Below are positions 3,588 through 31,100 of a stretch of DNA of 64,000 bases, piece after piece. The DNA is taken from contig CAZLJY010000002.1 of assembly GCA_964559945.1 (NCBI GenBank), positions 7,856 to 71,855 on the forward strand. The letters are read 5' to 3'. Positions within the stretch are counted from its first letter, which is position 1. Every line of letters begins with the position of its first letter. A program made the translations under genes and the position numbers. The notes beneath the pieces were generated by a model. That model made no database searches. It saw only the letters and a list, made by a program, of their open reading frames with translations, and was not told where the DNA came from. Origin of the DNA: an uncultured Gammaproteobacteria bacterium. GTDB taxonomy: Bacteria > Pseudomonadota > Gammaproteobacteria > Xanthomonadales > SZUA-38.

Positions 3588-3939
3588 AAAAACGATTGGG
3601 GAAACGCATCAACTTGGTTACTCGCTCCAATCGCCGGCGGGTTACACTCGACAGTCGCACAGGCCCAGTCTCCGCCAGAACCTCATCAAGCTCTGCCTGT
3701 AGTGAGTCAAATTCACGATATAACTCGGTGAGATCATACAAACCTGAGCTGCCCCGCAATTGATGAACCTCGGTGCGTAGCTGTTGCATGGCCTGACGAT
3801 CTGGAGGCTCAGCGAGACATTTCTGTGTCCAATCCTCAATATCGATCAGCCGTTTAGCGAAGCTATCAACAAACTGGCGTTTAAGGCGTGCGATATGTGC
3901 TTCGGTGGCCGGTTTTAAGTTGCGGCGACTGTCTGTCAT
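3583..3939 (-). CDS. Stand-alone Hpt (histidine phosphotransfer) protein
   Basis: 118 aa. EVHQLRGSSGLYDLTEL matches the Hpt signature H-x-L-K/R-G-S-(S/A). The start overlaps the upstream kinase stop by 4 nt (ATGA). Confidence 0.7.
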   Translation of the reverse strand: MTDSRRNLKPATEAHIARLKRQFVDSFAKRLIDIEDWTQKCLAEPPDRQAMQQLRTEVHQLRGSSGLYDLTELYREFDSLQAELDEVLAETGPVRLSSVTRRRLERVTKLMRFPNRFL

Positions 3940-5971: not shown

Positions 5972-5975
5972 GGGA

Positions 5976-7328: not shown

Positions 7329-7334
7329 GCGTCC

Positions 7335-7868: not shown

Positions 7869-7906
7869 GCCTGCTTGTGTCCTAAGTCCTTGATGCCATC
7901 ACTATT

Positions 7907-8587
7907 TTACACACGCTGGAGTCGATAACCCTGCTGATAGATGCTACGCAACTCCCAACCTTGATCTTTCGTCCATCCCAATTTTTTCCTAAGCCTACTG
8001 GCATGGGTATCCACCGTTCGGGTTTCCACTGCGGTGCTCAGACCCCAGACCTCAAACATGATGCGTTCCCGAGTCACCACCACATTAAGGTTTTCTACCA
8101 GCGTGATAGCCATTTGAAATTCTCTACGAGTGAGAGCAACATTTTCCCCACCAACCGTAACCTTCTCACTGCGCCGGTCGAACTCATGCTCCCCTTCGCG
8201 CACCAACCACGCAGGCCCTTTGCTGCCGGTGCGTCGGACCAATGCATTGGTCCGCGCCATAAGCACAGTGCGGTCGAACGGTTTTGTGAGATAGTCATCG
8301 GCGCCGCTGTCCAGAGCCTCTACCAGGTCGGCATTGGCGTCACGGCCGGTTAGAAACAACACAGGCAACTGGGATTGCTGACTGTCGCGGATCCATTTAA
8401 GAACCCCAAGCCCCTGGACGTCTGGCAGCTCCCAATCCAGGATTGCTAGCCGGTAGTCGCGATGCAGAAACCCATTAACGAAGGATTTTGAGGTGGCAAA
8501 CAGGTCCACCTCAAATCCGGCGTCCTCAAGCCAGGCTTTCACCAGTTCTCCCTGGTGCTGATCATCCTCAAGGTACGCTATTAACAT
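7907..8587 (-). CDS. OmpR/PhoB-family DNA-binding response regulator
   Basis: The receiver is MLIAYLEDDQ...LAILDWELPD...LTKPF. The winged-helix region is LTRREFQMAITLVEN...VDTHASRLRKKL...GYRL. Confidence 0.9.
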   Translation of the reverse strand: MLIAYLEDDQHQGELVKAWLEDAGFEVDLFATSKSFVNGFLHRDYRLAILDWELPDVQGLGVLKWIRDSQQSQLPVLFLTGRDANADLVEALDSGADDYLTKPFDRTVLMARTNALVRRTGSKGPAWLVREGEHEFDRRSEKVTVGGENVALTRREFQMAITLVENLNVVVTRERIMFEVWGLSTAVETRTVDTHASRLRKKLGWTKDQGWELRSIYQQGYRLQRV

Positions 8588-10167: not shown

Positions 10168-13100
10168 ATGACGACTATTAAAAGGAATACAGGCACCTCC
10201 GCACTGCTTATGGCAGGCGGCTTGCTGCTAGGGACCGTCGCAGGCGCACTGGAAATACCGCCACCAGGGGACCCGTTTTTCATTCAAACCAACTCATCGG
10301 ACGCCGCCATTGGTCTTGGCGACTGGTACACCGCCAGCAACAACGGCGTTGGCGGTGGCTTTCACTACGTAGGCATATTCGTGCCCTGTGGCTGGCCGGT
10401 GGATCAAGAAATCCATATCGACTTGTTCAGTCCGGAAATGAATACCAACAATCCGGTTACCGATGAACCCAATAGCGGTGGATTAGGCACAACTACCTTT
10501 GAATTGTTTGGGGTTGGGACAACCGTCGCTAGCCCAGCAACCCCGGCGCCTGGTGCCGCGGGTTCGCTGTTGTCCATAGATTACCCGCCCAGCAGTGATC
10601 CCGAGCAGTGGATTCGGGCATTCACCCTGGGTGATGACGCTGGCGCAACGGCTCCCATCAGCTGCGGCCAATATGTGCTGCGCATTGGCTCAACCCAAGA
10701 TGATCAAAATGCTTGGCGACTGCGGGTAGGGTTCGACGATGACAACAACCCTAACAATGCATTTCCTCCCAACTGGGATGATTTAGACGGCGTTCCTGGG
10801 ACCGATGACGAACTGCTGGTGGGGCTTTATCAATACGCCTTTCAACAGAACTCCGGCGGTGTGCAGTGCAACACCTTATTTGAGTTTGTCGAGGAAAACT
10901 CTAGCTGCCCTAGTTCTCCGCCAACTCCTCCAGACAGTAATGTCTGCTTTAACAACTTTGACATGGACAACAACACCAGAGTCCGTTATTACCCGCCTCT
11001 GACCCCCCTGGACCCGAACGGGCTGATTGGAGGCGTTCCAGGCACCCTGTCAGGTAACGGTGTGTGGAATGGGGGAACTCAAACCACCCGAGGCGGTGAC
11101 GTCATTACCAACCCTGATGTGGGTTGGTGGGGCATTGTGACCTGCTTGTCTAACAACAATCAGCTGGCCCAAGATGCCCAGGAGAATGTTCCTCAATTTA
11201 ATCAAATCCCCCCTATTCCGGTGATTGAATTGTTGAAAGATGATGGAACAGTGGTTGCCAATGCTGGCGATACGCTGACCTACAACATCCGCTTTGAGAA
11301 CATTTCTGACGACGACCTACTGCCCGGCGCAGCCCGCAATTTGCAGTTAGTGGACACGCTACCGTCGGACGTGAGCTATGTATCTTGCGCCATCAACGCA
11401 CCCTTCAGCGGGGTTTGTAGCGAGTCCGGTGGAGTGGTGACTTATGACATCACTGAGACTGTATTGGCGGGAGACGTTGGAACCTTAAGCCTAGTGGTAA
11501 CGATTGACCCAGCGGCAACGTTTCCGTTTACCAACAACATCGTTGCGACCTACACCGATAGCTGGGAAGTAGGCACCTATACTGCCGAAGATGACGAAAC
11601 CACCTTTAGCGCGACGCCCCTTAGCCTGGTCAAAACCGTCGACACCCCCCTTGCCGCAGTGGGCGATGAGGTCAACTACACCTACACGATCACCAATATC
11701 TCTCCAGACCCGGTAGTGGTCATTGATCTGGTTGACGACAAAATTGGTACGTTCCAATTTCCCGAGCAATTTCCCAATGCAGTTGCGCTGTATGACTTCT
11801 CTCAAGGCCCAGACCCGGACATCGTACGCGATACCTCGGGATTTTTGTCTACGCTAGATTTAACCGTGGAAGCGCCGCCGGTGGTCTATGAACTGAACCC
11901 TGAGCGGATCGACATCAACACCTCCAACCGGATATCTAACGCCACCGACAACAATAAAATTGTTAGTGAATGCCAGGCCGAAGGCCAATTTGCTCTGGAA
12001 GCCTGGGTGCAGCCTCTTGGTGTTTTACAAGGTGGACCAGCACGAATTGTTCATTCATCCTTAGACGATGCCAATATCAATTTCAGCCTCTATCAAGACA
12101 ACGATCAATACGGTTTCTTCATTCGCACGCCGTCCAATACCGATCCAGTTAATGACATCGTACTCAATACCGCCCCGAGTTCTGTCAGCACCGACCTGAC
12201 CCATCTTTTGGTCGTGGTCTCGGCGACTGGCGATGCAACGCTATATCAAGATGGTGTGGTGTCAGCATCCGCTAACGTGGGCGCAACCAACAACTTCAGT
12301 AACTGGGATACCAGTTGGGATTTTGGCCTCGGCAATCAGTTCTCAGCGGCGCCAACATCAAGCGCGCAAGATTGGCAGGGGCAAATCTACAAAACTGCCA
12401 TTTACTGTGATGAAATTCGCCCAGAAGACGCGGGCAACCTCTTTAACCTTGGCAGTGAAAACGACCCTAGCGGCAACCGATTGCTAGAGCCCGGTGAGCA
12501 GGTGGTGCTGACTGCCCCCTACACAATTACCACCAGCGATTTCCCCGGCCCAGTGGTCAACATCGCTGAGGTGCGTGGCCTTACTGCCGGCGATCTTAGC
12601 TTTACCGTCACAGACACTGAGTCCGTCGACATCGATACCCAAGCGCTGGAGCTGACCAAGCAATCGGATGCCACCGGCGAGGTGGTCCCTGGGCAAATTA
12701 TCACTTACACCTTGACCGTCACCAATACCGACAGCATCACCCACACCGGTCTAACCGTGGTAGATCCCTTGCCTGCTGGCACGAGCTACGTCCCACAGTC
12801 CACCCAGGTTCAAGGACGGCGCGCACAAGTCATCGACTATCGGGACAACTTTAACGACACGCCAGTCACCTATTCTGGATCCAGTGGGGCGACACCCTGG
12901 GCCGGAAGCTGGATCGAGCTGGATAACGGTGCCAGCGATGGCCCGGCCGCAGGTGAGGTATTCATAAGCGGCGGCGAACTCCAGTTTGATCAGCCCGATT
13001 CTGCCGACGATACGGACTTTGACACCCTCCAACGGGCGGCTGATCTGAGCGGTGCCAGCAGCGCAAACCTCACCTTTGACTTCGACTTCGATGGCGCAAC

Positions 13101-16100
13101 CGAAGACTGTGATGGCGCTCTGGGCGCTGATGATTGCCTGTTTGCGGAAGCGTCCAATGACGGCATCAATTGGACCACTCTGGATACACTCGGTGGCGAG
13201 CCTGACAACAACAATGGCACCCGCACCGTTGCTATACCTGCCGGCCTTGTGGGCGCCACCACCCAAATTCGTTTTAGAGCTCTGGGCTTTCGCGGTGGCG
13301 ATGAAAACGTCAGCGTCGATAATGTTGTGGTTTCTGCATCGCTGACCGGGCCGGTGAGCTTAGACAATGTTCCGGGCGGCGCTAACGATTTGGACGATGG
13401 GGTACCCCAGGATCTGGTCACAACAAACGACAACCTGATTCTCAACCCGAATGAATCCATGACGGTTACCTTTCAAGTGCAAGTGGATGATCCGCTGAAC
13501 TCCAATATCGTGGCCATTCGTAATTTGGCGTCCGCTGACTCAGACCAAGGCACCCCCGCGGTGGCTGAAGTGCTGGATCCGGTGCGACCGCTGGGTGGGC
13601 AGATTGGCGATTCTGTTTGGCTGGATGCAGATGCTGATGGCATCTTCGATTTAGGTGAAGCGGGTCTTGCCAATGTTGTGGTAGAACTCATTGACCCCGC
13701 CGATGGATCAGTCATTGCAACCACAACGACCGACCTCACGGGCCGCTATCTATTCCCCAACTTGCCTGCTGGCGACTACGATGTAAGAGTCGACACAAGC
13801 ACCCTACCTGCTGGGCTGGTTGCCGGCCCCGGCAACAACAACCCCGCCGGTACGTTTACCATCACTGGCGCTGAACAATTCAACAATGCCGATTTCGGTT
13901 ATGTCACCACTCCTGGCGACGCCATCATCGGCGACAGCGTATTTTCTGACACCGACGGGGACGGCCTGCAGGACCCTGGCGAGGCCGGTTTTGGCGGCGT
14001 AACCGTAGAGTTGCGCGATGCCCTCACCGGTGCGGTGATTGCCACCACCACCACTGGCCCAGACGGTCGCTATCTGTTCACTGGAGTCGCCCCAGGCACC
14101 TATGTAGTGAACGTTACGGATACGGGCAACGTCCTGGCCAACGCCAGCAGCACCACCGGTGGCAATGAGTCTGCGCCGGTATCAGTAGGTGCAGGGGACG
14201 TCATCACCGATGTTGACTTCGGTTATCTGGATCCGTTTACCTTCAGTCTGACCGACGACGTGTGGTTTGATGCAGACGGCAATGGCCTTCGTACCAGTAA
14301 CGAAAGCGGTATCAGCGGGGTTAGCGTGAGTCTGCTTGACGCCGCTGGCAACGTGGTTGCCACCACCATCAGCGGAGCCGACGGTTCAGTGACATTCTCT
14401 GGTTTGCCCAACGGCGACTATCAACTGGCTCTTACAGACACCCAGGGCCGGCTGACTGGCTTTGGCGCCACAACCCCTGGCGCGGTCAATCGCTCGGCGA
14501 CTAACACCATTAACAACAGCGACGCCAGTGGTCGCAACTTCGGCTTCAATCTGCCCGGACTCGTCGGCAACGAAGTGTTTTCCGACGCCAACGGCAACGG
14601 CATCTTGGATCCTGGCGAAGTATTGATTCCGGGGGTTGATCTATCCCTGTTCGTCGACGACGGCGATGGTGTGTTCGATTCCACTGTCGATACATTGGTC
14701 AATTCAGACCAAACCGACTCCGGCGGTATCTACGACTTCCGCGGGTTGGCGTTCTCCCAGTACTTCGTCTCTCTGGATACTACCCAGCCAGAGTTGGCCG
14801 GTGCTACCTTGACCACCGGCGACTCACAAACTGGTGGTAACGCTGGCGGCGCGCAAATCGATGTCACCTTAAGCGGTGGTAACGGCGGCGTATTAACCGC
14901 CGATTTCGGATTCCTGAATTCCGCCCTGCCAGATCTCAGCGGCAATGTCTTTGAAGATCTGGACCGAGACGGCGTAGACGATGGCGTAGCCGAAGCGGGC
15001 TTCGCGGGCGTCACCATCGAACTGATTGCTGCAGGTCCTGATGGTGTGCTGGGAAGCGCCGATGACCTGGTGGTGGCTACCGCTCTCACCGACGCCAATG
15101 GCGACTATGAGTTTGTCGACGTACCGCCAGGCGACTACCGCCTTGCTGTCACCGATCGCAGCCAGGTTCTCACTGACTTTGGATTGACCAGTGGCTTAGA
15201 TCAGCTGGATCTGACAGTCGCCAACAGCGATATCAACGATCTAGACTTTGGCTATGCCCGAGCCTTTGGCGATGCCAGCCTGGGAGACTTGGTGTGGCTG
15301 GATGCCAATGGCAATGGCATCAACGAAGCGGGAGAAAACGGTATACCCGGCGTCACCCTGAACCTTTTTGACGCCGGCCCAGACGGCGTCATCGGCGGCG
15401 GTGATGACGTGTTGATTGCCAACACGGTTACCGATCAATTGGGCGGATTTGATTTCAAGAACCTGCCAGCGGGTCGCTACTACGTAGATGTTGACGACAG
15501 CACGATTCCACCAGGCTTAACTTTGAGCCCTGGCCTTACGGACCCCAGTGCTGTGGTTGCTCTGGGCGCCGGCGATAACAACGACACCTTGGAATTCGGT
15601 TACCGTCCAACCCCTGGCACCGCCTATATCGGCGATCAGGTTTGGATCGACGCTAACGGCAATGGTGAATTTGATCCTGGTGAAGCTGGCCTTCCTGGGG
15701 TTACCGTTGACCTGGTTGGTGCCGGGGCGGATGGCCAGTTAGGCACCGCAGACGACCTTACCCTTAGCACCGTCACCGATGGCGATGGAACCTACGCCTT
15801 CGACGGTCTGCCCCCAGACACCTACGCAGTCACGGTGAACACTGGCAGCCTGCCCGCAGGCTTCAATACCACGCCAACCAACGCTCAGGAAACCTACCAG
15901 CTGGTCGCTGACGCGGATACGGCCTACGTGCTGCTGGACTGGGGTTTTCAGCCCCAAACGCCATTGGCGTCATTGGGCGACCGAGTCTTCATCGACAACG
16001 ACGGCGATGGTGTACAAGATGCCGATGAGAGTGGACTTGGCGGGCTCACTATTGACTTACTGGGCCCCGGTCCAGACGGCATCTTCGGTACCGCAGATGA

Positions 16101-19100
16101 TGTGGTACTAGCCTCTACTGTGACCGACGGCAACGGGGACTACGATTTCACCGGACTGAATCCCGGCGATTATCGTGTCTCATTGACCGATACCGCAGGC
16201 GTATTGACAGGGCTCAACCCCACGACCGTCAACCCAGGCACAGTAACTTTAGCTGCCGGACAGGATTTTGATGACGCCGACTTTGGCTTCTTCCCAGCCT
16301 CCAGCTTAGGCTCGGTGGGCGATCTGGTGTTCCACGACGTCAATGGCGATGGCGTTCGCCAACCCAATGAATCAGGCATCGAGTCAGTGCTAGTGGAGCT
16401 ATGGTTGGACACCGACAACGACGGCGTGATTACGCCAGGCGTCGATAACCTGGTGCGCAGCACTCGCACCGACGTTAACGGTGAGTACGAATTCGGTGGG
16501 GTTACGCCGGAAGACTACCTGGTGCGCCCAGCGCCTCAGAACTTCCAATCAGGCGGCGTCCTGGAGGGCACCAATGCCACTTCTGGCACCGCAGGTAGCA
16601 ACAACAACGCTCAGGCTATACCGCTGCCACTATCCGTTGACTCGGGCAACCTGAATCCCAACTTCGCCGACTTTGGCGTCAATGCTCCGGCGCCCTTCAG
16701 CCTGGCAGGCACGGTGTTTGAAGACATCAGCAACGATGGCTTTGACCAACCCGGTGAACCTGATGTTGGCGGCGTTACCGTTCTGCTGTTTAGAGATCTG
16801 GACGGCGACGGTTTGCTGGGCCCCAATGATCCGGTTTTCGGCATGGCGACCACCGACGCCGACGGCGACTACCTGTTCGATAATCTGCCCCCTGGGGACT
16901 ACTTGGTCAGCACTGACGTGATCGGCTCGCGCCTTGCTGGCTACTTCCAGACCACCCAGACGGTATCACGCGGAGTGGAACCGGTTACCGGCAATAGCGG
17001 CGACACCATCACAGAAGTTGACTTCGGCTTTTTCAATGGTGGCCTCACAACAACGCCAGTGACCCTGTCCTATTTCCGCGCGACACCGGAAAAAGGTGGG
17101 CTTCGTGTCCAGTTCGCCACGGCAACAGAGACTGGCAATATCGGTTTTGCCATCCACCATCGCAGCGCCAATGGCGCCATCAAGCGGGCCGCTCCTATGA
17201 TGGCCTCCAAGGTGGTTGATTCGACCCAATGGCAATCTTACGAGACCTTCCTGACTGGAAGTTCGGCGACCAAATTGTGGCTCAGCGATATTGACACCCG
17301 CGGGGTAGAAACCCTGCACGGGCCGTTCGAATTGAATCGGGACTACGGCAATAGCCAGCCTCCGCAGCCCATCAACTGGCAAGCGATTCGCGAACAAAAT
17401 TCCCAGACGCTTTTGGCCAAGACTGCTCGCAAGGGCGATAGCAACACCTCATCGGTAGATCTCACCATCACCGAGTCTGGGATCGCTAGAGTTAGCGCAG
17501 ACCAACTCACCAGTGCTGGATTAGACCTAACCGCTGTCAGCGGCTCCGAATTGGCACTGAGTGTGAATAACGAGCATGTAGCGGCTCGGGTCAGCACTGA
17601 TGGACTGTTCGGATCAGGCGACTTTGTCGAATTCCTGGCCGAAACTCGCGATAGCCTTTATGGCTCTGACAATGTCTACCAATTGACTGTCAATCCGGTT
17701 GCCGCTCAGCGGGTGCAGGTTAACAGCGAGTTGCCGCAGAACCTGGATCCTCAAATCACCGAAACTGCGCTGGTGACATTAGCGGAAAATAACGAGTACA
17801 GCTTTGCCTCCCCCACCGGCGACCCCTGGTTTATGGAAGGTATCCTCGCCTTCACCGATGAAGTTGAGGCCAGTTATGACCTCTCATTGGACGGTTACTC
17901 TGGTGGCAGTGCCAATTTAACCGTTGATCTGTGGGGCGTTACCGACCTCCCCGAGAGCCCGGATCACCATATTCAGGTTCTGGTTAACGGCCAACAGGTC
18001 AGCGAGCTATTTCTAGACGGTTTGAGCCAGGGCCAAATCAACGTTCAGGTACCCCAGACGGAGCTGGTTGACGGCATCAACACCGTCACCGTTCGATTGC
18101 CAGCAGATACTGGCGCTCAGTTTGACCTGGTTAACGTTGAAGCCATATCAATGAGCTACCAGCGGGCACCAAGAATCGATGGCGGAACCGGCAACGTGGG
18201 CGTAAGCAATAACGCATCGCCACTGAGTCTCCATCCCGACACTCTGTTCGCCAGTTCTTTTGAGGTCTTGCCAGGAGCGTCATTCTCGGTCTCCGGTCTG
18301 ACCAGTAACGATGCGGTGGTTTACGCCGAAACCGACGCAGGTCCGGTCTGGATGCAAAACGCTCGGACTTCCGCTAACGGCTCTGACATCACCCTGGACG
18401 TGCCAGGGGTGCCCGGAGCTAATGGGTTTGTCATTAGCCAACTGGATTCACTGGTAGAAGTCTCCGTCAGCCCGACCCGGTTGAACAACGAGCTTCTCAG
18501 TGATCCTGCGGACTACCTAATGATTGCTCACCCGGTGTTTGTAGATGCCATCGAACCGCTGGCTCAATTCCACCGCGATCGGGGCTTAACCGTTCGGGTA
18601 ATCAACGTGAACGACATTTACGCCCAATATTCAGCGGCCCAGATTGATGCTAACGCCATCGACAGTTTTATCGCTGATGCTGTTCCGGCACTGGATACCC
18701 GCTTCGTGTTGCTGGTGGGTGGTGATTCCTACGATTACCACAATTACCTTGAGATGGGATCACTGAGCTTTATCCCATCGCTGTACGGCCAGGTCCATGC
18801 AGTGGTTCGCTATGCACCCCTAGATGCTTTGTACGCCGATATCGACGACGACCAAGTGCCTGACGTGGCCCTTGGCCGATTCCCAGTGCGCACTGTTCAA
18901 GAGTTAAACTTCATGATCAACAAGACCGTACAGTACGCGTCCAAAACGTATTCTCGTCAGGCAGTGTTTGCCGCCGACGAAGCGGAACCGTTAACACCCT
19001 TCGGCGCCATCAGCGACGACGTGATCGATAGTTTGCTCAGCAACTGGTCAGTAACCCAAAGCTATTTGGACAACGTATCTCCGGCCCAAGCCACCCAGGA

Positions 19101-19548
19101 TATTCTGGGCGCCATCAACAGTGGTGTTGCGCTAACTAACTACTTCGGCCACTCCGGATTCACCGAATGGGGACGAACCGATCGACTGCTCACTTCAAAC
19201 GACGTGGATACACTCAGCAATGTCGGCTTGCCCACCGTGGTCAATCAGTGGGGTTGCTGGAATGCTTACTACGTATCACCGTTTGCCGACACGCTGGCTC
19301 ATCGCTTCTTGATTGGCGGCGAACACGGGGCTGCCGCGATCCTCGGCCCAGTATCCCTAACCCGGCTGTCGTCCGAACAACTACTAAGCAACTTGAGTTT
19401 CGCCGAGATGGTCAGCGCTGGACAATCCGTCGGCCAATCGATCGTGAATGGCAAACAAGAACTAGCAGCTAATCACGAGAACCGCGAAGACGTTGTTCTG
19501 GGCTTCACCCTGCTAGGTGACCCGGCAATTCAGATAGAAAACGAATGA
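10168..19548 (+). CDS. Giant (3126 aa) secreted multidomain surface protein with a C-terminal peptidase C25 (gingipain-like) domain
   Basis: AAAGGA lies 8 nt upstream of the ATG and there is an 18-nt gap from the barrel gene. The signal peptide is [17 protein letters not shown]. DUF11/TIGR01451-type modules are present ([14 protein letters not shown]..., [15 protein letters not shown]..., [15 protein letters not shown]...LPAGTSY). It also has a LamG-like domain, 10 SdrD-B-like repeats and a C25 domain. Confidence 0.9.
   Translation: [3126 protein letters not shown]
11781..12460 (+). other. LamG / concanavalin-A-like lectin domain within the 3126-aa protein
   Basis: [26 protein letters not shown]...FALEAWVQP...ARIVHSS...[18 protein letters not shown]...[15 protein letters not shown] follows the Laminin_G_3 pattern. 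Confidence 0.6.
13594..17043 (+). repeat. Ten tandem SdrD-B-like (Cna-B fold, Ca-binding) repeats of about 100-125 aa
   Basis: The recurring motif is GDxVW/FxDxNGNGxxDxGExGxxGVTVxL...DGxYxFxxLxPGxYxV, e.g. [30 protein letters not shown]...[18 protein letters not shown]. Confidence 0.8.
18500..19545 (+). other. Peptidase C25 (gingipain-like) catalytic domain with an intact His/Cys dyad
   Basis: The domain begins [37 protein letters not shown] and continues [15 protein letters not shown]...ALGRFPVRT. The candidate catalytic His is in NYFGHSG (codon 19150-19152). The candidate Cys is in [10 protein letters not shown] (19255-19257), 35 residues later. The domain ends LLGDPAIQ. Confidence 0.75.
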
Positions 19549-19560
19549 CCTAGGGGTACC

Positions 19561-19587
19561 GCGCCGCAATCAATAAAATTGCGGCGC
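19561..19587. terminator. Hairpin between the convergent giant-protein and kynureninase-like genes (probable shared terminator)
   Basis: A 10-bp stem pairs GCGCCGCAAT (19561-19570) with ATTGCGGCGC (19578-19587) around the loop CAATAAA. It lies 13 nt after the TGA at 19546-19548. The flanking T-tracts are weak. Confidence 0.5.
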
Positions 19588-19746
19588 GAACCTTTAGATA
19601 CAAGCTGACATAGATCCCGCGCCGTGGCAGCGCAGACCTTAGGCATCCATCCTATTGCGGATCTTTGTCAGCTGTCATACGGGCAAATCGACCGTGGCCA
19701 TTGGGCTAGGGAAACCTCTACCGGCAGCGGCTGATATTCGCCTTCT

Positions 19747-20856
19747 CTACTGGGGAAGGCATTGGAGAATCTTTTCAATATCTTGCACAGTATTGTAAAG
19801 ATGGGGAGACAGACGGACGCCCTCATTGCGTGCATCAAAGTAAATTTCCGCGTTGCCCAGATTTTTCTCAAAATCTGATTGCCGCTCACCAAAGTTTAGT
19901 ACCACTGAACCGCCCCGCTGTATCGGATCGATCGGGGACACTTGGAACTCCGGCGCCACAGCGCTGCATAACTTTTCGCTAAGTTCTTGGTTGTGGCCCT
20001 GGATTGACCTTAGTCCGACATTAAGCAAACACTCAATCGAATGAGCGGCTGTCAAACACGGTGCAACGCTGGGAGTCGCCCCCCAGAAGCGAAGAGCATC
20101 GGGCGCGTATTTAAAATGATGAATATCAAATTCAAAGGGATTGGCGTGGGAAAACCAACCTACATCCCGTGGCTGACATTGCTCCACTTGCTCAGGATTG
20201 ACCCACAAAAAACCGGCGCCGGAACCACCACACAACCATTTCAGACAAGAACCCGCGATGAAGTCGACATTCCACTCATTGGCGTCTATTGGTCGGATGC
20301 CAATAGACTGGGCCACATCGACAATACTCACGATGCCCCGTTCACGGGCTATCGTCGCCAAAGGCGCAATATCGTGACATTCACTGGTATTGGAATGCAC
20401 ATGGGTTAGCAGCACGGCATGCACCTGGTGGTCCATAAACCGATCCCAGGTTGCCGGGTTCAAGGTATTTTCGCTGCGGGGAACCATCACGGGTTCGAAG
20501 CCCAAATTCCGGGCATTGGAAAAGACAAACCCTAGTGATGGGAAGGCTCGCTCAGAAATCAGCAGTTTGTTTCGACCTTTTCGCACGGGCAGTGCACCCA
20601 AGACCTGACTGACGGCAGCGGAAACGTTGGGCTGGGGACAAATCATGTCTGGCTGGTGCTGCAATACCTGAGCCAGGCCTTGCCTAAACGTATCAATGGC
20701 TGCTAACCAATGTGGCCACAGCTGGTCGTCTCCGGCCGTCCAAGGCGCCAATAGCGTGTCTTCTAAATGGGCCTTGAGGGAGGTTGGCGGAATACCCGCA
20801 GAGTGGTTCAACAGGTATCCTGGCGCAGCTGCCCAAGCGTCCGGAATGCTTAGCAT
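19747..20856 (-). CDS. Kynureninase-family PLP-dependent hydrolase (short form, 369 aa)
   Basis: LLTHVHSNTSECHDI, DVAQSIG and FIAGSCLKWLCGGSGAGFLWV (PLP lysine) parallel kynureninase LTHVNYKTG...GCTYKYLNGGPG..FVWV. GWFSH parallels GWFGH. The ATG overlaps the upstream gene's stop by 7 nt. Confidence 0.75.
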   Translation of the reverse strand: MLSIPDAWAAAPGYLLNHSAGIPPTSLKAHLEDTLLAPWTAGDDQLWPHWLAAIDTFRQGLAQVLQHQPDMICPQPNVSAAVSQVLGALPVRKGRNKLLISERAFPSLGFVFSNARNLGFEPVMVPRSENTLNPATWDRFMDHQVHAVLLTHVHSNTSECHDIAPLATIARERGIVSIVDVAQSIGIRPIDANEWNVDFIAGSCLKWLCGGSGAGFLWVNPEQVEQCQPRDVGWFSHANPFEFDIHHFKYAPDALRFWGATPSVAPCLTAAHSIECLLNVGLRSIQGHNQELSEKLCSAVAPEFQVSPIDPIQRGGSVVLNFGERQSDFEKNLGNAEIYFDARNEGVRLSPHLYNTVQDIEKILQCLPQ

Positions 20857-22034
20857 GGCTGGACTCCCAGGTGATTGCGGATGGTTTGCATATCCTTATA
20901 GCGACTGAGAATGTCATCTCGCGCAGCGGCAGTGCGCAAATCTTTTAGTTTTTCCAGCGCTGCTAATAACACTTCAAGAGGAGGCCCACTGGCAGTGATA
21001 TTTTTAAGGTGTTCGGTCGCCAGGGCATTGGATGGCTGTTGAATATAACGTTTCACCAATTGATCATGATGCTGGGTTGCTGTCACGCCATGGGCATCGC
21101 AAACCTTTACAAACAGTTCAACGTTGCGGTCGAAATAGGGCCCACCGTCGCCGGAGTGCAGACAATCAAGAATTTGATCCATTAGACTTTGCCGACGCAT
21201 GCAGTCTCGCAATCGGCTCTGATCGACCGGCGACATATACATAAATTTATCCACTAGCAATTGGGAATACGAGGTGTCCTCAGCCTGGCATAGCCCTAAC
21301 AACAGATCGATTTCATTGATGCCAGCAAAGTCTCCTGCGTTTGCACCTCGATATTCGGTTCGCCCAACCCGGTAAGGCTTATAGTAGGGCCTCACTGAAT
21401 AAAAAAAGCGGTCGGTATCAAGCTGGTCAAAAAGATGCTGGTTGTTTTGCGCGACCTCTTCCAAAGCGTTTTTTGCTGCGACCAGGAGGTCGGCAGTAAC
21501 GGGATGGGTTATACCCAAAGGTACCGTGTTAACCAATGCATCCGCCGCGCGTTTGAAGGCGAAAATTCCGCGGGTGTTGTAGTCAAGAAATAGAGCTTCG
21601 TCGTGGAGCGAGGTGAAACACCGGTATCGCCCGTTTTCCGCCAGGTTATGAGTCGATAAATGACTGGTTGCGAAGCGCGGAGCAACACCCAGTGAGGCGC
21701 CAATGTGCATAGCCAATCCGGAGGCCTCTACTAACGGCGAGGTTTGTTCCCGTGAAGGCTCTGTCAGTTCATGACGACGACAGGCTCCCATGTACAAGCC
21801 CACATCACCTAATAGGGCAAAGGCCGCCTCAAAACCTTCATCGGTGTTGCCTTCCCGATGCAGCTCGGCGATAAGTGCTCTACCCTCTTCTAACAAAGTA
21901 GTGCGTAATGACTGCCCGACCGCACCGACGTCTGCTCTGTCCTGCTGAGCAAAATAGAGGTTTTCCAGTTCGGTGTTGATTTCGATAAAGTCGCTGCGCA
22001 TCCAGGCGTAGAACTTTCTGACGTTAGTACTCAC
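20850..22034 (-). CDS. PrnB-like protein (monodechloroaminopyrrolnitrin synthase family; heme enzyme with TDO/IDO-type fold)
   Basis: [39 protein letters not shown] aligns by eye with my remembered PrnB sequence [50 protein letters not shown] aligns with APHLKLAERAY. I prefer the GTG at 22034, which is preceded by AAGGAAG-N5, over the ORF-track TTG at 22082. Confidence 0.65.
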   Translation of the reverse strand: [394 protein letters not shown]

Positions 22035-22196
22035 CAGGACTTCCTTGGCTCGGAGAAACAAGCGGGAAGTATTCCACAGCAAAACAATTCACGTCATAGG
22101 AAATTTATCCCACTGAATGATCATGCATAGAAAGTACTGCGATGGATTGATGGAGCCGACCCCAGCGATCGCTGAAGCCGGCGCCAATATTTAGGT

Positions 22197-25100
22197 TCAA
22201 CAGTCTCGACGGATCAGGCGACCTCTAGCAACCAACATCAGTAACATCATCATTATCAACAATGCCCAAGTATTGGTGGTAGGAATGGTCAACGGACGCA
22301 AGGTGGTAGTGATCACCGTGGGATCACTATTGTTACCCGGACCATCACCCTCAGGGTCGGCGTCTATGCCGTTTTGGGAGATATCGCTGACAGCACGGGA
22401 GGCGCCGATAGCCGTGGCAGTGGCGGTATTGGCATAGGGCGGCGCGGAGTCGCGGGCAAAGACCAAAACGGACAGCCGGATGAGGCCACTTTCACCCACA
22501 GCCAGAGAGTCCGTTCCAGCCAATAAATTGACGTCCGAATCGCCGTCATAGTTATCGTTAACCGTGAGCTCTGCCGAGAAAAGGTTTGTCACCTCAAAGG
22601 TCGCCGGTGCTGGGAATGTCGATACCAGGTCATCAACCACCTGAATCTGATCCAAGTCTACTTGGCCGGTGTTAAACACCCTCAGCTGGTAGCTAACCAG
22701 CGCGCTGTTGTCTGGCAACACCGCAGTGTAACCAGGCTGCGGCAACTCAACGTTGGCCAGATTTTTAGCCAGTCCAATCTCACCTAAGCCGGCGCCTCCA
22801 AGGGGGACGACGGTTGGGTCGCCGCCAACAACAGAGCCTGGATCATCGGAACTCACTGGGTCGGTCTCGTCCGAGTCCACCACTGCTTGGTTAATGATGG
22901 AACTCACGTCCCCTGGCAATGGGTCGTTTATCCGCACTTGGAAGGCCACAGTTTGTGTGGTGTTGGCAGCCATAGAGCCAAGGTTTACCGCAATACTGGT
23001 TTGCCCTGCACCGTTGCCGGTGATGACAGTGCCTGCACTGGTTATCACACTGCCATTAATTAACAGCGTATTGATATCCGGTGTGTCACTTAAGGTGACA
23101 TTGTTCGCCGTGCCGTTACCCACGTTTCGAATGGTCAACAAGTAGTCTATTCGATCACCACTGTTGTTCAGGCCATCAGCGTTGTCATCAAAGATGTTGA
23201 TCGCCGCCTTGCTTAACTCAAGGATGGGGTCCGCATCAATCGGCGTGCCGGTCGGGTCGTCATCGGTGGGTGAGTCCGGATCGTCCGTGGGCTCATCAGG
23301 GATGGTCGGGCCGGTGACCAGCCCTTGGTTGAACACCTGAGAGGCGTTGTTGATCACTGGGCTATTAATCGTCACGTCAAAACTGACCGTCACGCTGGCG
23401 CCACCAGCGAGGGTACCCACATTAATCTCGACGTCAGTATCCGCGCCGCCATTGCCGCGAGTCACGATTCCCTGACTAGTCTGCACGCTGCCAGGCACCA
23501 ATGTGGTGTTAACGTCAGGCGTATCGGTGAACACAATTCCGGACGCCCCAGCGTTACCACTGTTTGAAATGGTCACAATGTAGGTCAGCGTGTCACCCGG
23601 TGAGCCAACGCTATTGTTGTCCGCATCAACACTTAAGGTATCGGTTTTACTGGCCTCAATAACCGGATTAGAAGTCACTGGCGTGTCGGTGGTGTCGTCA
23701 TCGTCCGGGGTGTCCGGATCATCAGAGGGTGCAACCGGCGCGTTATCACTGAATACCACCGCTTGGTTGGATACCGAGGTGACATCGGCAGGAAGTGGAC
23801 TGTTAATGGTCACGTCAAACGACAGCGAGACCGTATTACCACCAGCGATATCGCCGAAATCTACAGCCACATCAATATCCCCAGGGGTATTGCCCTGAGT
23901 CACCGTTCCCTGAGAGGTCACCACTGAGCCAACCACTAAGGTGACGTTAGGATCCAGGTTATCGTTGGCAAAGGTGCTTATGGCCGCCTGGTTGCCGTCG
24001 TTGTTGACAGTAACAATATAAGTCAGGGTGTCGCCGGGAGAAGGCGAACCACTGCCATCGGCATCAACTCTTAGGATGTCAGTTTTGAGTACCTCCAGAT
24101 CCGGCGCAGCAACAATCGGCACCTCGGTCGGATCTCCGTTCGGAGCATCATCGGGATCATCCGTGGGCACTGTCGGCAGTTCGTTACTACCTACCAAGCC
24201 TTGGTTAACCAGTTCAGTCACACCCGCCGGCAGCGGCGAGTTCACGGTGGTCTGGTAACTGATGGATACTGAACTTGCGCCGCTCAGCCCACCAATATCG
24301 ATGGTGATAGTGCTATCACCCGCACCGTTACCGGTAACCACGGTGCCCGCGGAGCTTGCCACACTGCCGTTGACTAAGGTGGAGTTAATGTCCGGTATGT
24401 CCGTGTACTGAACGCCGGTAGCACCACCGTTACCGATATTGTCAATAACAATTGTGTAGAGCAGCGTATCGCCGGGACTGACAGCCCCGTTGTTATCGGC
24501 ATCGTTCTGCAGAGCAACAGCTTTGCTCGCTTCAATGATTGGCGCTGAGGTCACCGGTGTTGGCGTTGGATCATCTTCATCAGGGCTGTCCGGGTCATCC
24601 GTCGGCTCGGTGGGCTGCTGATCAGAGTCAACAGCGCCCTGGTTGGACAGTAACGTTACGCCCGCTGGCAATGGGTTGTTGATCGTGACATCAAAGGTAA
24701 TGGTCACACTACCTCCCCCGCCAGGGATGCCGCCTATAGCTACCGCCACCTGGGTATCACCCGCGGTGTTGCCAAGGGTGACTGTTCCCATGGTTGTTGC
24801 CACCGAGCCGGCTACTAGCGTGGTATTGGCATCGGGGATGTCTGTGAACTGAACCCCGGACGCGCCGCCGTTGCCGCCATTGAGCACCGTCACGGTGTAT
24901 CGCAGCGTGTCACCTGGCGATGCAATCGTGTCGCCGTCGGCATCCACCAACAAACTGTCGGCTTTAAAGGCTTCCAGGTTGGTGGCCGAGGTTAGCGGTA
25001 CCACGGTGGGATCGTCATCTGGCGGACCATCCAAATCGTTGGAAGGCTCCGCTGGTAGGCCATCGCCACTGACAAAGGCTTGGTTCACCAACTGGCTGAC

Positions 25101-28100
25101 GCCAGCGGGCAGCGGATTGGGAATATCCACCTGGTAACCGACAGTGACGGACGCACCGCCCCCTGGCAATGTGCCAACGTCTACCGAGATCGCGGTATCG
25201 CCCGCGGTGTTGCCGATGGTGACTAAACCTGCGGTAGATATCACCGAGCCGGCGATAAAGGTGCCATTGGCATCGGGAGTATCGGTGATCACCACTCCTG
25301 TGGCTGCCGCATTGCCGATGTTGATAGCAGTCAGCGTATAGCTGAGGGTGTCGCCCGGCGACGGTACACCATTGCCATCGGCATCTGTCAGTAGCGTGAC
25401 CGATTTATCCAACTCCAAGATCGGCGTCGCGGTTACCGGCGTTGGGGTGGGTTCATCCTCAGACCCGCCATCTGGATCATCCGTTGGCTCATCTGGCAGC
25501 TGATCGCTGCTGACAAAACCCTGGTTGACCACCTGGATCACACCTGCCGGCAGAGGATTGTTGATCGTCACATCAAACGTAATGGTGACCTGAGCACCAC
25601 CACCTAAGGAACCGATATCAACACTGACGTCGGTGTCGCCGGCGCCATTACCCATCAATACCGTACCCAGGGTCGTCACCACAGAGCCTGGCACCAGTTG
25701 GGTATTCGCTCCGGGCGTATCATTGAAGGCCAGGCCAGTTAATCCAACATTACCAACGTTGTCGATCAACACCGTATAGCGCAGTACATCACCCGGTGAG
25801 GGCACACTGTCAAGGTCGTTGTCTGTCAGCAAGGCATCGGACTTGAACGCCTCCAGCAGCGGATCAGTCGTCACCGGTGTACCAGTAGGATCCCCGCCCG
25901 GTAAGGTGTCTGGATCGTCCGTATCAATGGGCGGTAATTCAGCGGAGCTCACGGTGGCCTGGTTGGCTACCATGGTGGTACCGGCCGGTAGCGGATTGTC
26001 TACCACAACCTCGAAGGTCACCACCGCAGTCTCGCCATTACCCGGAATCACTCCGGTATCCACTTCCACGTTTACGTCGCCTGGGGTATTACCCAACACA
26101 ACGCTGCCGCGACTGGTCATCACACTGCCCACATTAAGGGCCACATTGGGGTCTAAGTTGTCGTTGACAAAGGTGGCTGTAGCGCCCTGATTACCCGTGT
26201 TAGTGATAGTGATGGTGTACAGCAGGGTATCACCGGGAGAAGCAAAGCCGTCGCCATCGGCATCGACCAACAGGGCATCGGTTTTGATCGCCGACAGCAC
26301 AGGGGTTGCGGTGAGCGGCGTGTCCGTCGGGTCATCGTCCATTGGCGTATCTGGGTCGTTGGTGGGCTCATCGGGTAATTCGTTGCTACCCACAACACCC
26401 TGGTTACTAAGCTGGGTGACACCCGCCGCCAAGGGGTCATCGATCAACACATCAAACGTGATAGTGCGACTAGCACCACCACCAGGGATGGTGTCCAGAT
26501 TCACGCTGATGGTCGTATCACCGGCGGTATTACCGGTCACCACAGTACCCAATGGCGCAACCTGTACTGAGCCAACGATCAATGCGCTGTTGCTGTCTGG
26601 CATATCGTTGAAGGTCACACCCGTCGCCGCAATGTTGCCGGTGTTCGTAATGTTGACGGTGTAGCGCAGAGTGTCACCTGGGGACGGGACGGTATCGCCA
26701 TCGGCGTCCACCAGTAATACATCAGCCTTGTCTGCCTCCAAAATTGGCACCGCTGTTACCGGTGTGTCGGTAGGATCGTTGGGATCTGCGTCATCCGGGT
26801 CGTCAGTGGGCACAACCGGGGTTTGATCACTACCCACCAATCCTTGGTTAGCCACTGTGGTAACGCCTGCCGGCAATGGATTATTGATAGTGACGTTGAA
26901 GCTGATCGTGACGCTATCGCCGCCACCTAAAAGGGTGCCAACGTTAACCGTGATCGGTGGCGTGCCGGCGTTACCACCGGTAATCGTTCCCCGACTGGTA
27001 GTGACCGTTCCAGCCACCAGCGTGGTATTGGCATCTGGTGTATCGGTAAAGGTCACACCGCTGGCAGCCTGGTTGCCGCTGTTGGTAAGGACCACGGTAT
27101 ACAGCAGCTCATCGCCCGGCGACGGTATGCTGTTGCCATCGTTATCAAGGAACAACGAATCGGTCTTAGTGGCGCTGATGATAGGCGTACCTACCAGCGG
27201 GGTGATATTCGCGTCGTCGTCCGGACCGGTGCTTGGATCATCCGTTGGCTCGGACGGCAGCTCGTTGGAATCAACCCGCCCCTGGTTAACCACTTGGGTC
27301 ACACCCAATGGCAGAGGGTTGTTGATAGTGACATCAAACACAATGTCCACACTACCGCCCTGACCAGCCAGAATTCCGATATCGACGGTGACCGGAGGGA
27401 CGCCGGCGTTACCACCGGTAATGGTGCCCTGGGTGGTTGTGACAGACCCGCTAACCAAGGTGGTGTTGGCATCCGGAGTATCTACAAACATGACACCAGA
27501 CGCGTCCTGATTACCACTGTTGACCACATTGATGGTATAGCGAAGGGTGTCACCCGGAGACGCCACACTGTTGCCGTCCGCATCAATCAACAGGGCATCG
27601 CTCTTGCTCGCTTCGATAACCGGTTCGGCAATGAGCGGAGTCACCGTCGGATCATCATCCGGCGCTGTATCTGGATCGTCGGTGGGTTCGTCGGCCAACT
27701 CATTGGAGCCAACCACACCCTGGTTTGACACTTGAGTGACGCCATCGGATAGCGGGTTGTCGACTATCACATCGAAGGTGATCGTGACAGTGGCCCCGCC
27801 ACCCATCATGGTGCCTATATCAATGTTAATGGGTGGCGCGCCCGCGTTTCCTCCAGTGACAGTTCCCTGGGTAGTGGTAACCGAACCTGCCACGAGCGTC
27901 GTGTTGGCATCGGGGGTATCAGTAAACGTCACTCCACTAGCAGCGCCGTTGCCGCTATTGGTGATCACTACCGTATAGCGCAGCGTGTCGCCCGGTGAGG
28001 GTGAACTACTTGCATCAGCGTCCACCAATACCGCATCGGTTTTGCTAGCTTCCAAAATGGGGTTGGAATTAACCGGAATCACGGTGGGGTCATCATCGCC

Positions 28101-31100
28101 TACCGGGCCCGGATCGTCGGTGACCACATCGGGGACTTGCGCACTGGACACAACACCCTGGTTCGTCAGCGTGTTGATACCGGCAGGAAGTGGGTCATTG
28201 ACTGTGGTGCGGTAAGTAATGGTGGCAGTGCCGCCGCCAGCGGCCAATGCACCCAACGCGACCTCTACAGGAGGGGTGCCGGTATTGCCGTCGGTAATTG
28301 TGCCTTGAGTTGTGGTTACCGTTCCGGCAACCAAGGTGGAATTCACATCAGGGGTATCGGTAAATACCACGTTGGTAGCGGACGCACCGCCAGTGTTGGT
28401 AATGACAATGCTATAGCTCAGCACATCGCCAGGGGTTACATCGCCCGAGCTGTCGACGTCATCAAATAGCACGCCGGTTTTGCTGGCACTGAGTTCGGGC
28501 AAATTGATATTTTCTGAATCAGTGGCGGTATCGGTTCGATCCTCATCCGGTGCGCCGGGCATGGTAGTGCCACTGAGATTGGCAACGTTCACCACCGGCA
28601 GCGCTGGCAGCGGATCGGCAAACATGACTCGGGCGGTAAAGGACAAAGTCTCACCCACTTCCAACGACGTATCAGGCAAGCTGCCTGCAGGGTCAGAGGA
28701 AAATCGCAGAGTGGTTTGGCCCGCTGCTGGTGTATTGACCAAAATCTGCCCAATGAAGCCAGCAGGCACCGTATCGATAATGGCGGTTGCCAGATCCCAG
28801 TTGGTTTCGCTAAGCACATCATCCAGAACCAAATCGTAGGCAGGGGCGGTGCCCGTGTTGGTGATATCGAACTGAAGCGTGGCGATCAGTCCGTTGACCT
28901 CGGCGAGGGTTTTATCCACTGCCAGGTTAGGCTCAACCACATCAATGTCTGCGGTAGCCGAGTCCGTCACCGTGCCAGTGGGTCCTTCAAACTCCAGAGT
29001 TGAGGTATTGATGAGTAGGTCACCGGATTCGTTGGTGTCATCGTCGGCCGGTACTGAAGGGCCAACATTGACCACCACACCGCACACCTGCAGCACCAAC
29101 TGATCATCAACCGTTACCGCGTTGTCGGTGGTGGGATTGGTGACATCACCCAAATTAAAGGTGGCCGTGTCGTTGCCCACAGGCGCGAGGTCGTCGGAAA
29201 TCACCGCGGTGAACCCATTGGTCACGCCCAGCATTCCTGAACCAAATACCGTGGCACTGGTGAGTTCAAGAACCCCCTCGTTGCCGTTAGCGCTGCCCGA
29301 GGGCAGTGTGTCACTCACAATCACTTGCTGGGTGACGCCTTGGGGGAAGGTGACTGTGGTGTGGTAGCACACCTCCTCACCAATGGTTGCGTCAAACAGG
29401 AATGGATCGCCAAAACTTTGTCCGGTATCCGGGTTGCTGGTTGAGAATACGGTCTTCTCAATGCTCGGCTCGTCGACAGTGAATTGACCGGTGTCGGCAT
29501 CGTTACCGTCACCGTTTTCATCACCGGCACCACCGGGGGTCGAATCGAACTGCAGTGACGCGTTGTTGACGTAGCTATCGCCGGAAATCACCGTTGGATC
29601 AACGGTGACGTCATAGGTGATGGTGCAAACGTCCCCTAAGTCCAGCTGGGTAATGGTGAACAATACGGCAGGGTCGCCGGTACCGTCAGCCACAAAACCC
29701 TGGCAAGCGGCGCTGGATGTGAAGTTAGTTGGTGCACCGGAACCCAGTGGGTCGGGTAGTTGGTCAGTGATATCCAGATCATAGGCCACCGCGCTGGAAG
29801 CACCAGTATGGGAAATGACCAGGGTAAAGGTCAGCGTATCGCTGCCGCTGACCTCAACTAAGGTATCGGGCGTCTTGTTGATTTGCAGCAACGGCTGAAC
29901 AATGTCTACATCCACCGAATCCATTAACGGCATCTGGGGTGTGCCGCCGATATCAAAGTCCAGACTAGCCTGATTACGCGCATTGTCGGTACCGGGGTTG
30001 CCGGCAACATTGCGCACCCGGGCAACGATAGTGAATTCAATTTGGTCATCTGCCGGCAGCGTTGCGTCGGTGGCAACGTTAACCACGTTGCCGAGATCCC
30101 ACAGGAAGAAGTCGTCGGTACCGTCCAGCGGCGCAGTGTCAGATATCGCATCGGGTGAAGCACCCAACGCTAAGCCGCTGCCGATGGTGATGTCAGCGCC
30201 AATACGAGACAGGGTGGCTGAAACCAGTTCGAAGGTCGCTGACGGCGTGCTGCCCGGGAACGGCAGTTGGTCGCTGATGACAGCGTTTTCTAATGTGCCG
30301 TTGGGAAGATCAAGAACCAAGCGATAGGTCACCTCTTCACCGATGGTCAGATCAGGCTCCGGCCCTAACACCCCATCGACATCCGGCGTATTGATATCGC
30401 CGGAGGAGACAAACAGTTTGTCCAGACCCGGGCCAGAGATATCCACCATAAACTCAGCCATATCTCCGTAGCTACGTCGTTGTTCATCTGCCTCAGAGGC
30501 ATCAGTACTGAAGTAGTCAAGATCGGCGACGTTCATGATCGTGTCACCCAAGGTCGCGGCCACATTAATTTGGGCCTGATAGGTGAAACGGCAGACATCG
30601 GCCACGGGTAGGCTGTCAAAACCAATGCGCAATCCCACACCATTGGGATCAGACTCGTCCAGCAGATCCGGTGCGCCGGTGCAGGTTGCGCCAGAAGGCG
30701 CGCCGGCGGCAGCCAAGGTGCCCGTCACGTAGGTCAACTCTGCGGGCAATTGGTCAGCCAACAACACATCGATGGCAGCGGCATTGGAGATTCCGGTGTG
30801 GCCAATGTCCAAGGTGTAGGTAATGGTATCGCCGGCATCGCCAGAGGTGACCGAACCACTCTTTGCCACCATCAAGTCAGGTTCAGCGATTTCCACATCC
30901 GCCGAGGCAACCACGTCGCTGAAGGTATCGGACGACACAATCATGTTATTGCGAACGGGCAATCCCGTGACGCCGTTGGCCGCTATATCGGCGACCCGAG
31001 CTTGAACCAGGAAAGTGATTTGGTTGTCTGCAGCAACCGTTGCCGGCGAATCGTTGGCATTAGTCAAATTGCCAAAATCTAAAATTAGCTGGTTATTGAG

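Follow-up and report, generated by a model that had tools for sequence, protein, structure and literature searches.

A co-conserved gene pair for a predicted heme protein of the PrnB/IDO family and a kynureninase-like enzyme in an uncultured gammaproteobacterium

Introduction

What do two overlapping genes for a PrnB-like heme protein and a kynureninase-like pyridoxal phosphate (PLP) enzyme do, and does their place between two giant genes bear on the answer? The two genes, here called A and B, lie on a 64,000-nucleotide (nt) stretch of DNA from an uncultured Gammaproteobacteria bacterium (GenBank assembly GCA_964559945.1, contig CAZLJY010000002.1, positions 7,856 to 71,855), which we refer to as the window. 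Both are on its minus strand, and the stop of A overlaps the start of B by 7 nt. An earlier note, written from the letters of the window alone, had proposed that the pair forms a non-canonical route acting on tryptophan or a similar amino acid and might be linked to the surface-protein locus around it. We found that A and B are truly paired and co-conserved across lineages and that they are independent of the giant genes. The novelty that the note had seen was overstated. Judged by its sequence, A-B is a further copy of a known orphan pair of the SO4414/SO_4413 type and not a new system, because A is the orthologue of Shewanella oneidensis SO4414, whose structure is solved (1ZEE and 2NWB), and the neighboring locus tag SO_4413 is already annotated as a kynureninase. 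We hold with moderate confidence that A-B is a self-contained bicistronic unit that converts a single aromatic alpha-amino acid, probably one of the indole type, in two steps.

Results

A and B are conserved as a pair and occur as a natural fusion

We scanned a genome collection with an alignment of protein A and obtained 80 loci with 60-85% identity, 76 of which were informative and four of which had too short a flank. The loci came from Halieaceae/Congregibacter, Shewanella, Pseudoalteromonas, Woeseia, Steroidobacteraceae, "Lysobacterales," Acidobacteriota, Gaiellaceae, and Chitinophagales/Hufsiella. We found that a B orthologue adjoins A in 45 of the 76 informative loci (about 59%; arrangements in Table 1) and that a further 13 (17%) have a sister class-V PLP enzyme no more than 5 kb away. 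The reverse look-up started from B homologues with 41-49% identity, and all four of these adjoined A or were fused with it. An exhaustive search of representative proteins returned the fusion, a 767-residue (aa) protein (P0241); its N-terminal half shares 59% identity with A, and its C-terminal half shares 41% with B. The 90% cluster to which it belongs comprises 315 proteins, of which many are 767 aa long and encoded on independent contigs, including a 290-kb contig of Ca. Thioglobus; therefore, the fusion is not an artefact. MDB9974668.1 is one example of such a natural 767-aa fusion. Thus, the co-conservation that the earlier note had left to be checked is borne out by adjacency across the loci and by the fusion in one lineage.

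The pairing also bears on whether protein A is an enzyme at all. It might instead be a heme-binding sensor or storage protein, with B independent of it, as the 18 loci where A stands alone and the lack of any reported activity for its family (PMC2652831) would allow. However, the tight adjacency of A and B, their natural fusion, and the very strong conservation of IDO-type distal-pocket and substrate-binding positions in A (see below) make this account quite improbable.

We looked for canonical kynurenine-pathway genes around A at the 80 loci. The 13 sister class-V neighbors were considered as KynU proteins and ruled out: they score 36-95 bits against TIGR01814, which has a 246-bit cutoff, and form a sister group. 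In Kineobactrum salinum CP048711 (L081 4806-5990), A is frameshifted into two frames and the downstream B is intact, which reflects either a pseudogene or a sequencing error.

Protein A is a PrnB/IDO-family protein predicted to bind heme

The earlier note had matched protein A to PrnB, an enzyme with the fold of tryptophan and indoleamine dioxygenases (TDO and IDO). Searches with hidden Markov models and against structure databases agreed with this placement. Protein A matched Pfam family PF08933 (PrnB, formerly DUF1864) with an E value of 2.4e-180 (599.8 bits; gathering threshold, 27), and the match ran end to end, with residues 19-404 of the long open reading frame (ORF) covering model positions 2-386 of 387. 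The top matches in the PDB were 1ZEE and 2NWB, the S. oneidensis "hypothetical protein SO4414," at full length and an E value of 1e-158. A survey of heme proteins gives 2NWB as the holo and 1ZEE as the apo form of SO4414, and the 1ZEE structure was recognized as IDO-like from its fold. Protein A is not a close relative of true PrnB, to which it aligned partially (2v7i, E value of 9.9e-11; 9dfg, E value of 4e-4). It scored 12.3 bits against Pfam IDO (PF01231), below the cutoff of 26, and did not match Pfam TDO (PF03301) at all; in the NCBIfam scan, no model covered it. By its sequence, protein A is a member of the PrnB/IDO family of heme enzymes, and heme binding is predicted.

The positions expected of such an enzyme are conserved. 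Both blocks that the earlier note had singled out align in the family profile. The first, including the RPYY part and YRGANA, aligns with PrnB over the common block RPxYxPxRVGxxxYxG. In the second, the latter His of QHHDQLV (His323) aligns with the His of SYHLQIV in IDO1 and of PHFQLA in FbPrnB. In IDO1 this residue, His346, is the proximal heme ligand, and the alignment places His323 at that position. His322 is strictly invariant and His323 nearly so; since one distant member carries Gln at 323, either His of the dyad (His324 or His325 in the numbering of 2NWB) may be the ligand. In the same profile, G230-A-N232-A-G234 aligns with the distal loop G-x-S-A-G (G-G-S-A-G) of IDO1. The segment from F210 to R215 has the spacing of F226-F227-x-x-x-R231 in IDO1, where R231 binds the substrate carboxylate. 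In an alignment of A that reaches down to 37% identity, F210, R215, R229, G230, N232, G234, D235, R87, H88, R120, H322, S349, and G350 are invariant.

Protein A retains 60% identity or more across Gammaproteobacteria, Acidobacteriota, Actinomycetota (Gaiellaceae), and Bacteroidota, and its family falls into very few 50%-identity clusters; either it is unusually tightly conserved or it has spread horizontally in recent times. Divergence is far quicker in B, with 38-81% identity. PF08933 is also cited for the antiphage "Ukko" system, where the citation refers to a different, multifamily TDO-like protein and not to the A-B pair.

Protein B is kynureninase-like and lies outside KynU

Protein B matched the class-V PLP family PF00266 with an E value of 1.5e-21. 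Its best NCBIfam match was the kynureninase equivalog TIGR01814, yet at 83 bits against a cutoff of 246.4, and SufS was a close second with 79.8 bits. Scores for the desulfurases fell short of their cutoffs as well (SufS, 475; IscS, 30.5 versus 643; CsdA, 39.8 versus 494), as did the score for PF22580 (KYNU_C; 22.4 bits, cutoff of 27). A profile built from 15 homologues of B and run against the PDB put kynureninases on top (Pseudomonas fluorescens, 3e-38; human, 3e-25), ahead of SufS at 9e-23.

We also compared an AlphaFold2 (AF2) model of B with known structures. The model had a predicted local distance difference test score (pLDDT) of 86.6. It was closest to human kynureninase, with the highest template-modeling score (TM-score, query normalized; 0.86-0.87) and the lowest root mean square deviation (2.7 Å) of the list, compared with 0.78-0.83 and 3.2-4 Å for desulfurases and C-DES. 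Foldseek E values did not separate kynureninases from cysteine desulfurases. On the strength of the model, the predicted fold of B is of the kynureninase type.

The hallmarks that the earlier note had read in B all align to the P. fluorescens enzyme, with the PLP Lys kept: LTHV, the Lys of SCLKW, and GWFSH correspond to MLTHV, CTYK(227)Y, and GWFGH. Asp180 aligns with D201, the Asp that contacts the pyridine nitrogen, and K206, D180, and R348 are all invariant in the alignment of B homologues. Further alignments to kynureninase positions include Trp234 (in GWFSH), Phe105-Pro-Ser (human Phe165), and Ser19; the aligned residues of kynureninase include catalytic and substrate-contacting ones. Trp47 and Thr261 align with Trp64 and Thr282, which contribute to specificity in the bacterial enzyme. 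On either side of Lys206 is an invariant cysteine (Cys204 and Cys209). At 369 aa, B is about 47 aa shorter than the P. fluorescens kynureninase (416 aa), close to the 45 aa that the earlier note had estimated. Thus, B appears kynureninase-like in type, yet it is outside KynU by the equivalog test.

The conserved neighborhood resembles a catabolic unit

We scanned the window ORFs of at least 150 aa with Pfam (61880-63175 with NCBIfam alone) and, as the earlier note had stated, found no formamidase, halogenase, or prnA/C/D among them; there was no TDO either. The conserved neighborhoods of A in other genomes likewise had no kynurenine formamidase, and no prnA (halogenase), prnC, or prnD was present in the conserved neighbor clusters. 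An Lrp/AsnC regulator, divergent from A, was a recurrent neighbor, and MarR regulators, amino-acid permeases of the APC type, SNF sodium symporters, and aldo-keto reductases also recurred (Table 1). None of these five is in the window, where the other ORFs are housekeeping genes (purA, hflKC, hflX, miaA, mutL, amiB, tsaE, pgi, panC, folK, pcnB, dapA, and others). Where A stands alone, the adjoining genes also look like housekeeping genes when their sequences are read (LeuRS, Pgi, PurA, and a cation-efflux protein) and give no clue to a pathway. The divergent Lrp/AsnC regulator in most other lineages points to an inducible catabolic module.

We asked whether the pair could be an ordinary equivalent of kynA and kynU. 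In that case A would act as tryptophan 2,3-dioxygenase and B as kynureninase, and L-tryptophan would be converted to anthranilate or N-formylanthranilate plus alanine, with deformylation spontaneous or catalyzed by an enzyme encoded elsewhere. The IDO1-like pocket residues of A, the closeness of B to kynureninase, the annotation of SO_4413, and a divergent Lrp-type regulator laid out like that of kynR-kynBU of Pseudomonas aeruginosa are all consistent with this. However, the scores of both proteins are below threshold (A, 12.3 versus 26 bits for IDO and no TDO match; B, 83 versus 246), neither the scanned window ORFs nor the conserved neighborhoods include a kynurenine formamidase, and the family was described as having "no known function" (PMC2652831), reportedly after biochemical study of the Shewanella protein. 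We therefore consider an ordinary kynA/kynU equivalent unlikely.

A second alternative is that A rearranges or mono-oxygenates its substrate in the manner of PrnB or MarE and that B, acting as a transaminase or lyase, then turns what A makes into a secondary metabolite, a pigment precursor, or a signal. The Pfam family does carry the PrnB name, the RPxYxPxRVG block is common to both, the superfamily includes mono-oxygenases, and at some loci other class-V enzymes, a luciferase-like oxidoreductase, or a cupin replace or join B. Against this, A is distant from true PrnB (E value of 1e-11, partial alignment), and no halogenase, prnC/D, nonribosomal peptide synthetase, or polyketide synthase is near it among the scanned window ORFs. 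The minimal conserved unit consists of a regulator with A and B, or with the fusion, amid housekeeping genes, an arrangement typical of catabolism and not of a biosynthetic cluster. These points make a PrnB- or MarE-like role improbable.

At some loci (L013, L022-L024, L031, L040, L043, L050, and L052), A has an alternative neighborhood that includes a sister class-V PLP enzyme. The genes accompanying this enzyme there encode a luciferase-like oxidoreductase, a CDGSH-cupin protein, a threonine-dehydratase-like enzyme, an SNF or APC transporter, and a MarR regulator.

Gene starts and boundaries of the transcription unit

Both minus-strand ORFs were present as the earlier note had described, including the 7-nt overlap, which suggests translational coupling. 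The long ORF of A runs from 20850 to 22082, and the TTG at 22082 is merely the first possible start. The alignment with SO4414 starts only at residue 20 of this ORF, a Shine-Dalgarno-like AAGGAAG precedes an internal GTG, and a public 394-aa protein (P0001) is 100% identical to A across 100% of its length; for these three reasons, the sequence favors the GTG at 22034 as the most likely start of A, giving 394 aa. With this start, 162 nt separate A from the stop of the upstream 4270-aa gene (22197); with the TTG, the spacer would be 114 nt. The earlier note had given 115-160 nt.

That note had also seen no obvious terminator in the spacer. This held for a consensus scan, which returned neither a terminator nor a sigma-70 promoter. 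It did not hold for folding: immediately beyond the stop of the 4270-aa gene is a stable, G+C-rich stem of about 15 bp with no U tract, and this hairpin may bound the A-B transcription unit on its upstream side. On the other side, two strong hairpins separate B from the convergent 3126-aa gene and probably form a bidirectional terminator region (Table 1).

The giant genes are coincidental neighbors

The pair is indeed embedded between two giant genes, both of which encode DUF11-repeat proteins. This placement raised the possibility that A-B serves the giant surface proteins by providing a modification, a cofactor, or a signal. The same embedding is seen at L001, L002, and L004, and no consensus terminator separates the 4270-aa gene from A. 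However, ORFs larger than 1200 aa occur within 7 kb of A in 4 of the 80 loci only (L001 to L004), all from the closest relatives. At one of these, L003, the genes run hflX-hflK-hflC-purA-Ser/Thr kinase-ECF sigma-A-B. Here the sigma gene ends 186 nt before A, with no 4270-aa gene between the two. At the more distant locus L053, 134 nt separate A from purA on its upstream side. In the window, an ECF sigma factor gene (TIGR02999), the same as in L003, and a gene for a Ser/Thr kinase-tetratricopeptide repeat (TPR) protein lie upstream of the 4270-aa gene (35494-38195, minus strand). Because the sigma gene of L003 and purA of L053 sit directly upstream of A, the 4270-aa gene seems to have been inserted into an older purA...A neighborhood. 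The stable hairpin after the stop of the giant gene is a further point against shared function. Thus, the proximity of the pair to the surface-protein genes is coincidental, since giant genes flank it only in the four closest relatives and one of these has no upstream giant gene. The functional link suggested in the earlier note fails on these comparisons: it is very improbable and close to refuted.

The giant proteins have features of their own. The 3126-aa gene (10168-19548, plus strand) encodes a secreted-looking protein with DUF11/DUF7507, Laminin_G_3, and SdrD_B repeats and a C-terminal Peptidase_C25 (gingipain-type) domain (E value of 4e-65). In L001 to L004, the part with the Peptidase_C25 end is conserved with 67-83% identity and again converges on A-B. 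The 4270-aa protein (22197-35009, minus strand) has DUF11/DUF7927 repeats and a tail, ...LTIPTTNTWALLIMMMLLMLVARGRLIRRDC (about 22197-22300), that resembles an exosortase-type C-terminal sorting signal; the sole support for this is a subthreshold match to NF033207 (midcut_by_XrtH; 20.9 versus 45 bits).

Elsewhere in the window, a minus-strand cluster (3936-8587) encodes a hybrid histidine kinase-receiver (3936-5462), a Ras/Roc-type small GTPase (5459-5971), an OmpR-type response regulator (7907-8587), a 450-aa protein that matches no family, and a 177-aa protein.

Table 1. Features of the A-B locus in the window and recurrent arrangements at related loci
Feature	Position or loci	Strand	Basis or remark
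Gene A, encoding the predicted heme protein (394 aa; SO4414 orthologue; DUF1864/PrnB family within the IDO/TDO/PrnB superfamily)	20850..22034	-	PF08933, PDB, and P0001 matches; GTG start
Gene B, 369-aa class-V PLP enzyme, kynureninase-like	19747..20856	-	PF00266, TIGR01814, profile versus PDB, AF2 model
Overlap ATGCTAA (B start, A stop)	20850..20856	-	Sequence: A ends ...CCA TGC TAA; B starts ATG CTA AGC
Shine-Dalgarno-like AAGGAAG	22040..22046	-	Read from sequence; 5 nt upstream of the GTG of gene A
F210-F211-Y-S-V-R215 codons	21390..21407	-	Spacing equals IDO1 F226-F227-x-x-x-R231; F210 and R215 invariant
His322-His323 codons (QHHDQLV)	21066..21071	-	His323 aligns to IDO1 His346 and the FbPrnB His; His322 is the invariant one
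Lys206 codon (SCLKW), predicted PLP Schiff-base lysine	20239..20241	-	Aligns to CTYK(227)Y of P. fluorescens; invariant among B homologues
Arg348 codon (GVRLSPHLYN), predicted substrate alpha-carboxylate binder	19813..19815	-	Aligns to human GIR(434)VAP; invariant among B homologues
G+C-rich hairpin, about 15 bp, no U tract	22151..22186	-	Folding; directly after the stop of the 4270-aa gene; z of -2.6 for the 150 nt folded
Two strong hairpins between convergent gene B and the 3126-aa gene	19555..19675	.	-67.1 kcal/mol over 150 nt; z of -4.56; 0 of 200 shuffles as stable
B orthologue (38-81% identity) directly downstream of A, same strand	43 loci		
B orthologue directly upstream of A, divergent	2 loci		
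Only a 26-29%-identical class-V enzyme, 1-5 kb from A	13 loci		
No PLP partner within 2-10 kb of A	18 loci		
Flank too short to judge	4 loci		
A-B fusion in Ca. Thioglobus sp.	L083 8001-10304		Divergent Lrp/AsnC regulator precedes
Lrp/AsnC regulator, divergent, 100-220 nt upstream of A	22 loci plus L081, L083, L084		
MarR regulators near A	About 15 loci		
SNF sodium symporter near A	8 loci		
APC amino-acid permease near A	Several loci		
Aldo-keto reductase near A	9 loci		Mainly Congregibacter

Discussion

For the chemistry of A-B, the order of its steps, and its substrate, we infer the following. Protein A, with a His-ligated heme and an IDO1-like active site, would use O2 to oxygenate or open the ring of the amino acid, which would yield an amino acid bearing an aryl ketone, of the same type as N-formylkynurenine or kynurenine. 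Protein B, as a kynureninase-type PLP enzyme, would then hydrolyze the C-beta/C-gamma bond to release L-alanine and an aromatic acid. In most other lineages, the regulator divergent from the pair would be an amino-acid-responsive one of the Lrp/AsnC type.

Several observations weigh against this two-step route. The Tyr that precedes the PLP Lys has a catalytic role in kynureninase (Tyr226 in P. fluorescens, Tyr275 in human); it is Leu205 in B and Val in the consensus of its homologues. The score of B against the kynureninase equivalog is far below the cutoff, A has no PLP partner nearby at 18 loci, and the absence of a formamidase among the scanned window ORFs also counts against it. The 2007 PNAS paper on the SO4414 structure reportedly found no tryptophan dioxygenase activity. 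A search of the literature available in full text returned no functional assignment for the SO4414/DUF1864 family; on function it gave only a prediction from the fold and a 2008 review, from the group studying SO4414, in which the IDO-like proteins of Shewanella are said to "have no known function" (PMC2652831). Finally, the relatives PrnB and MarE carry out rearrangement or mono-oxygenation, not ring opening.

A broader proposal, which we advance tentatively, is that the module of a DUF1864 protein and a kynureninase-like enzyme is a widespread, undescribed bacterial pathway. Its substrate would then be something other than plain L-tryptophan, for example a modified tryptophan or another aryl amino acid, or N-formylkynurenine might be cleaved directly without a formamidase. 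The module is free-standing in most lineages, is a 767-aa fusion in Ca. Thioglobus-type bacteria, and is usually under an Lrp/AsnC regulator. If this proposal is true, SO4414, a structural-genomics orphan for about 20 years, would gain its first function.

The window itself holds nothing categorically new, and it is the comparative data (the pairing, the fusion, and the regulator) that make the old orphan directly testable. They also dispel the appealing but mistaken idea that the pair is tied to giant adhesin-like genes. An assay of the pair or the fusion, together with the ligand of the Lrp regulator, offers a concrete route to the substrate. Finding it would add to what is known of the reactions of His-ligated heme oxygenases and of how marine and sediment bacteria catabolize aromatic amino acids.

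How does A-B compare with known systems? In P. aeruginosa, an Lrp-type regulator is divergent from the kynurenine-pathway genes (kynR-kynBU). An Lrp/AsnC regulator is likewise divergent from A-B or the fusion in 25 related loci; however, the window has no such regulator, and the genes beside the regulator in the relatives are not kynB or kynU. From kynureninase (KynU; P. fluorescens 1QZ9, human 2HZP/3E9K), B keeps the PLP Lys, the Asp, GWF(G/S)H, the carboxylate Arg, and the F-P-S motif. It differs in having DVAQS for DLAHS, Leu or Val for the Tyr before the Lys, Cys204/Cys209, and a shorter chain. PrnB (monodechloroaminopyrrolnitrin synthase) is in the same Pfam family as A and has the common RPxYxPxRVGxxxYxG block and the His, but its alignment to A is partial, prnA/C/D are missing here, and the partner of A is a PLP enzyme. 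With IDO1 and TDO (KynA), A shares the proximal His position, the G-x-x-A-G distal loop, the FFxxxR block (as judged against IDO1), and a His-ligated heme fold that is established for the structure of its orthologue. It differs from them in falling below the Pfam IDO threshold and in not matching TDO, and no tryptophan dioxygenase activity has been reported for its family (PMC2652831).

The closest counterpart is SO4414/SO_4413 of S. oneidensis. The host of the window differs from it in being an uncultured gammaproteobacterium whose nearest genome records are labeled Lysobacterales or Halieaceae. The window pair has giant DUF11 genes at its flanks instead of an upstream Lrp/AsnC regulator, and its B is just 38-41% identical to the Shewanella partners. 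In other respects the two are alike: A and SO4414 belong to the same PF08933 family and align over their full length (E value of 1e-158), and the surveyed Shewanella species have the same gene order, A and then the kynureninase-like gene.

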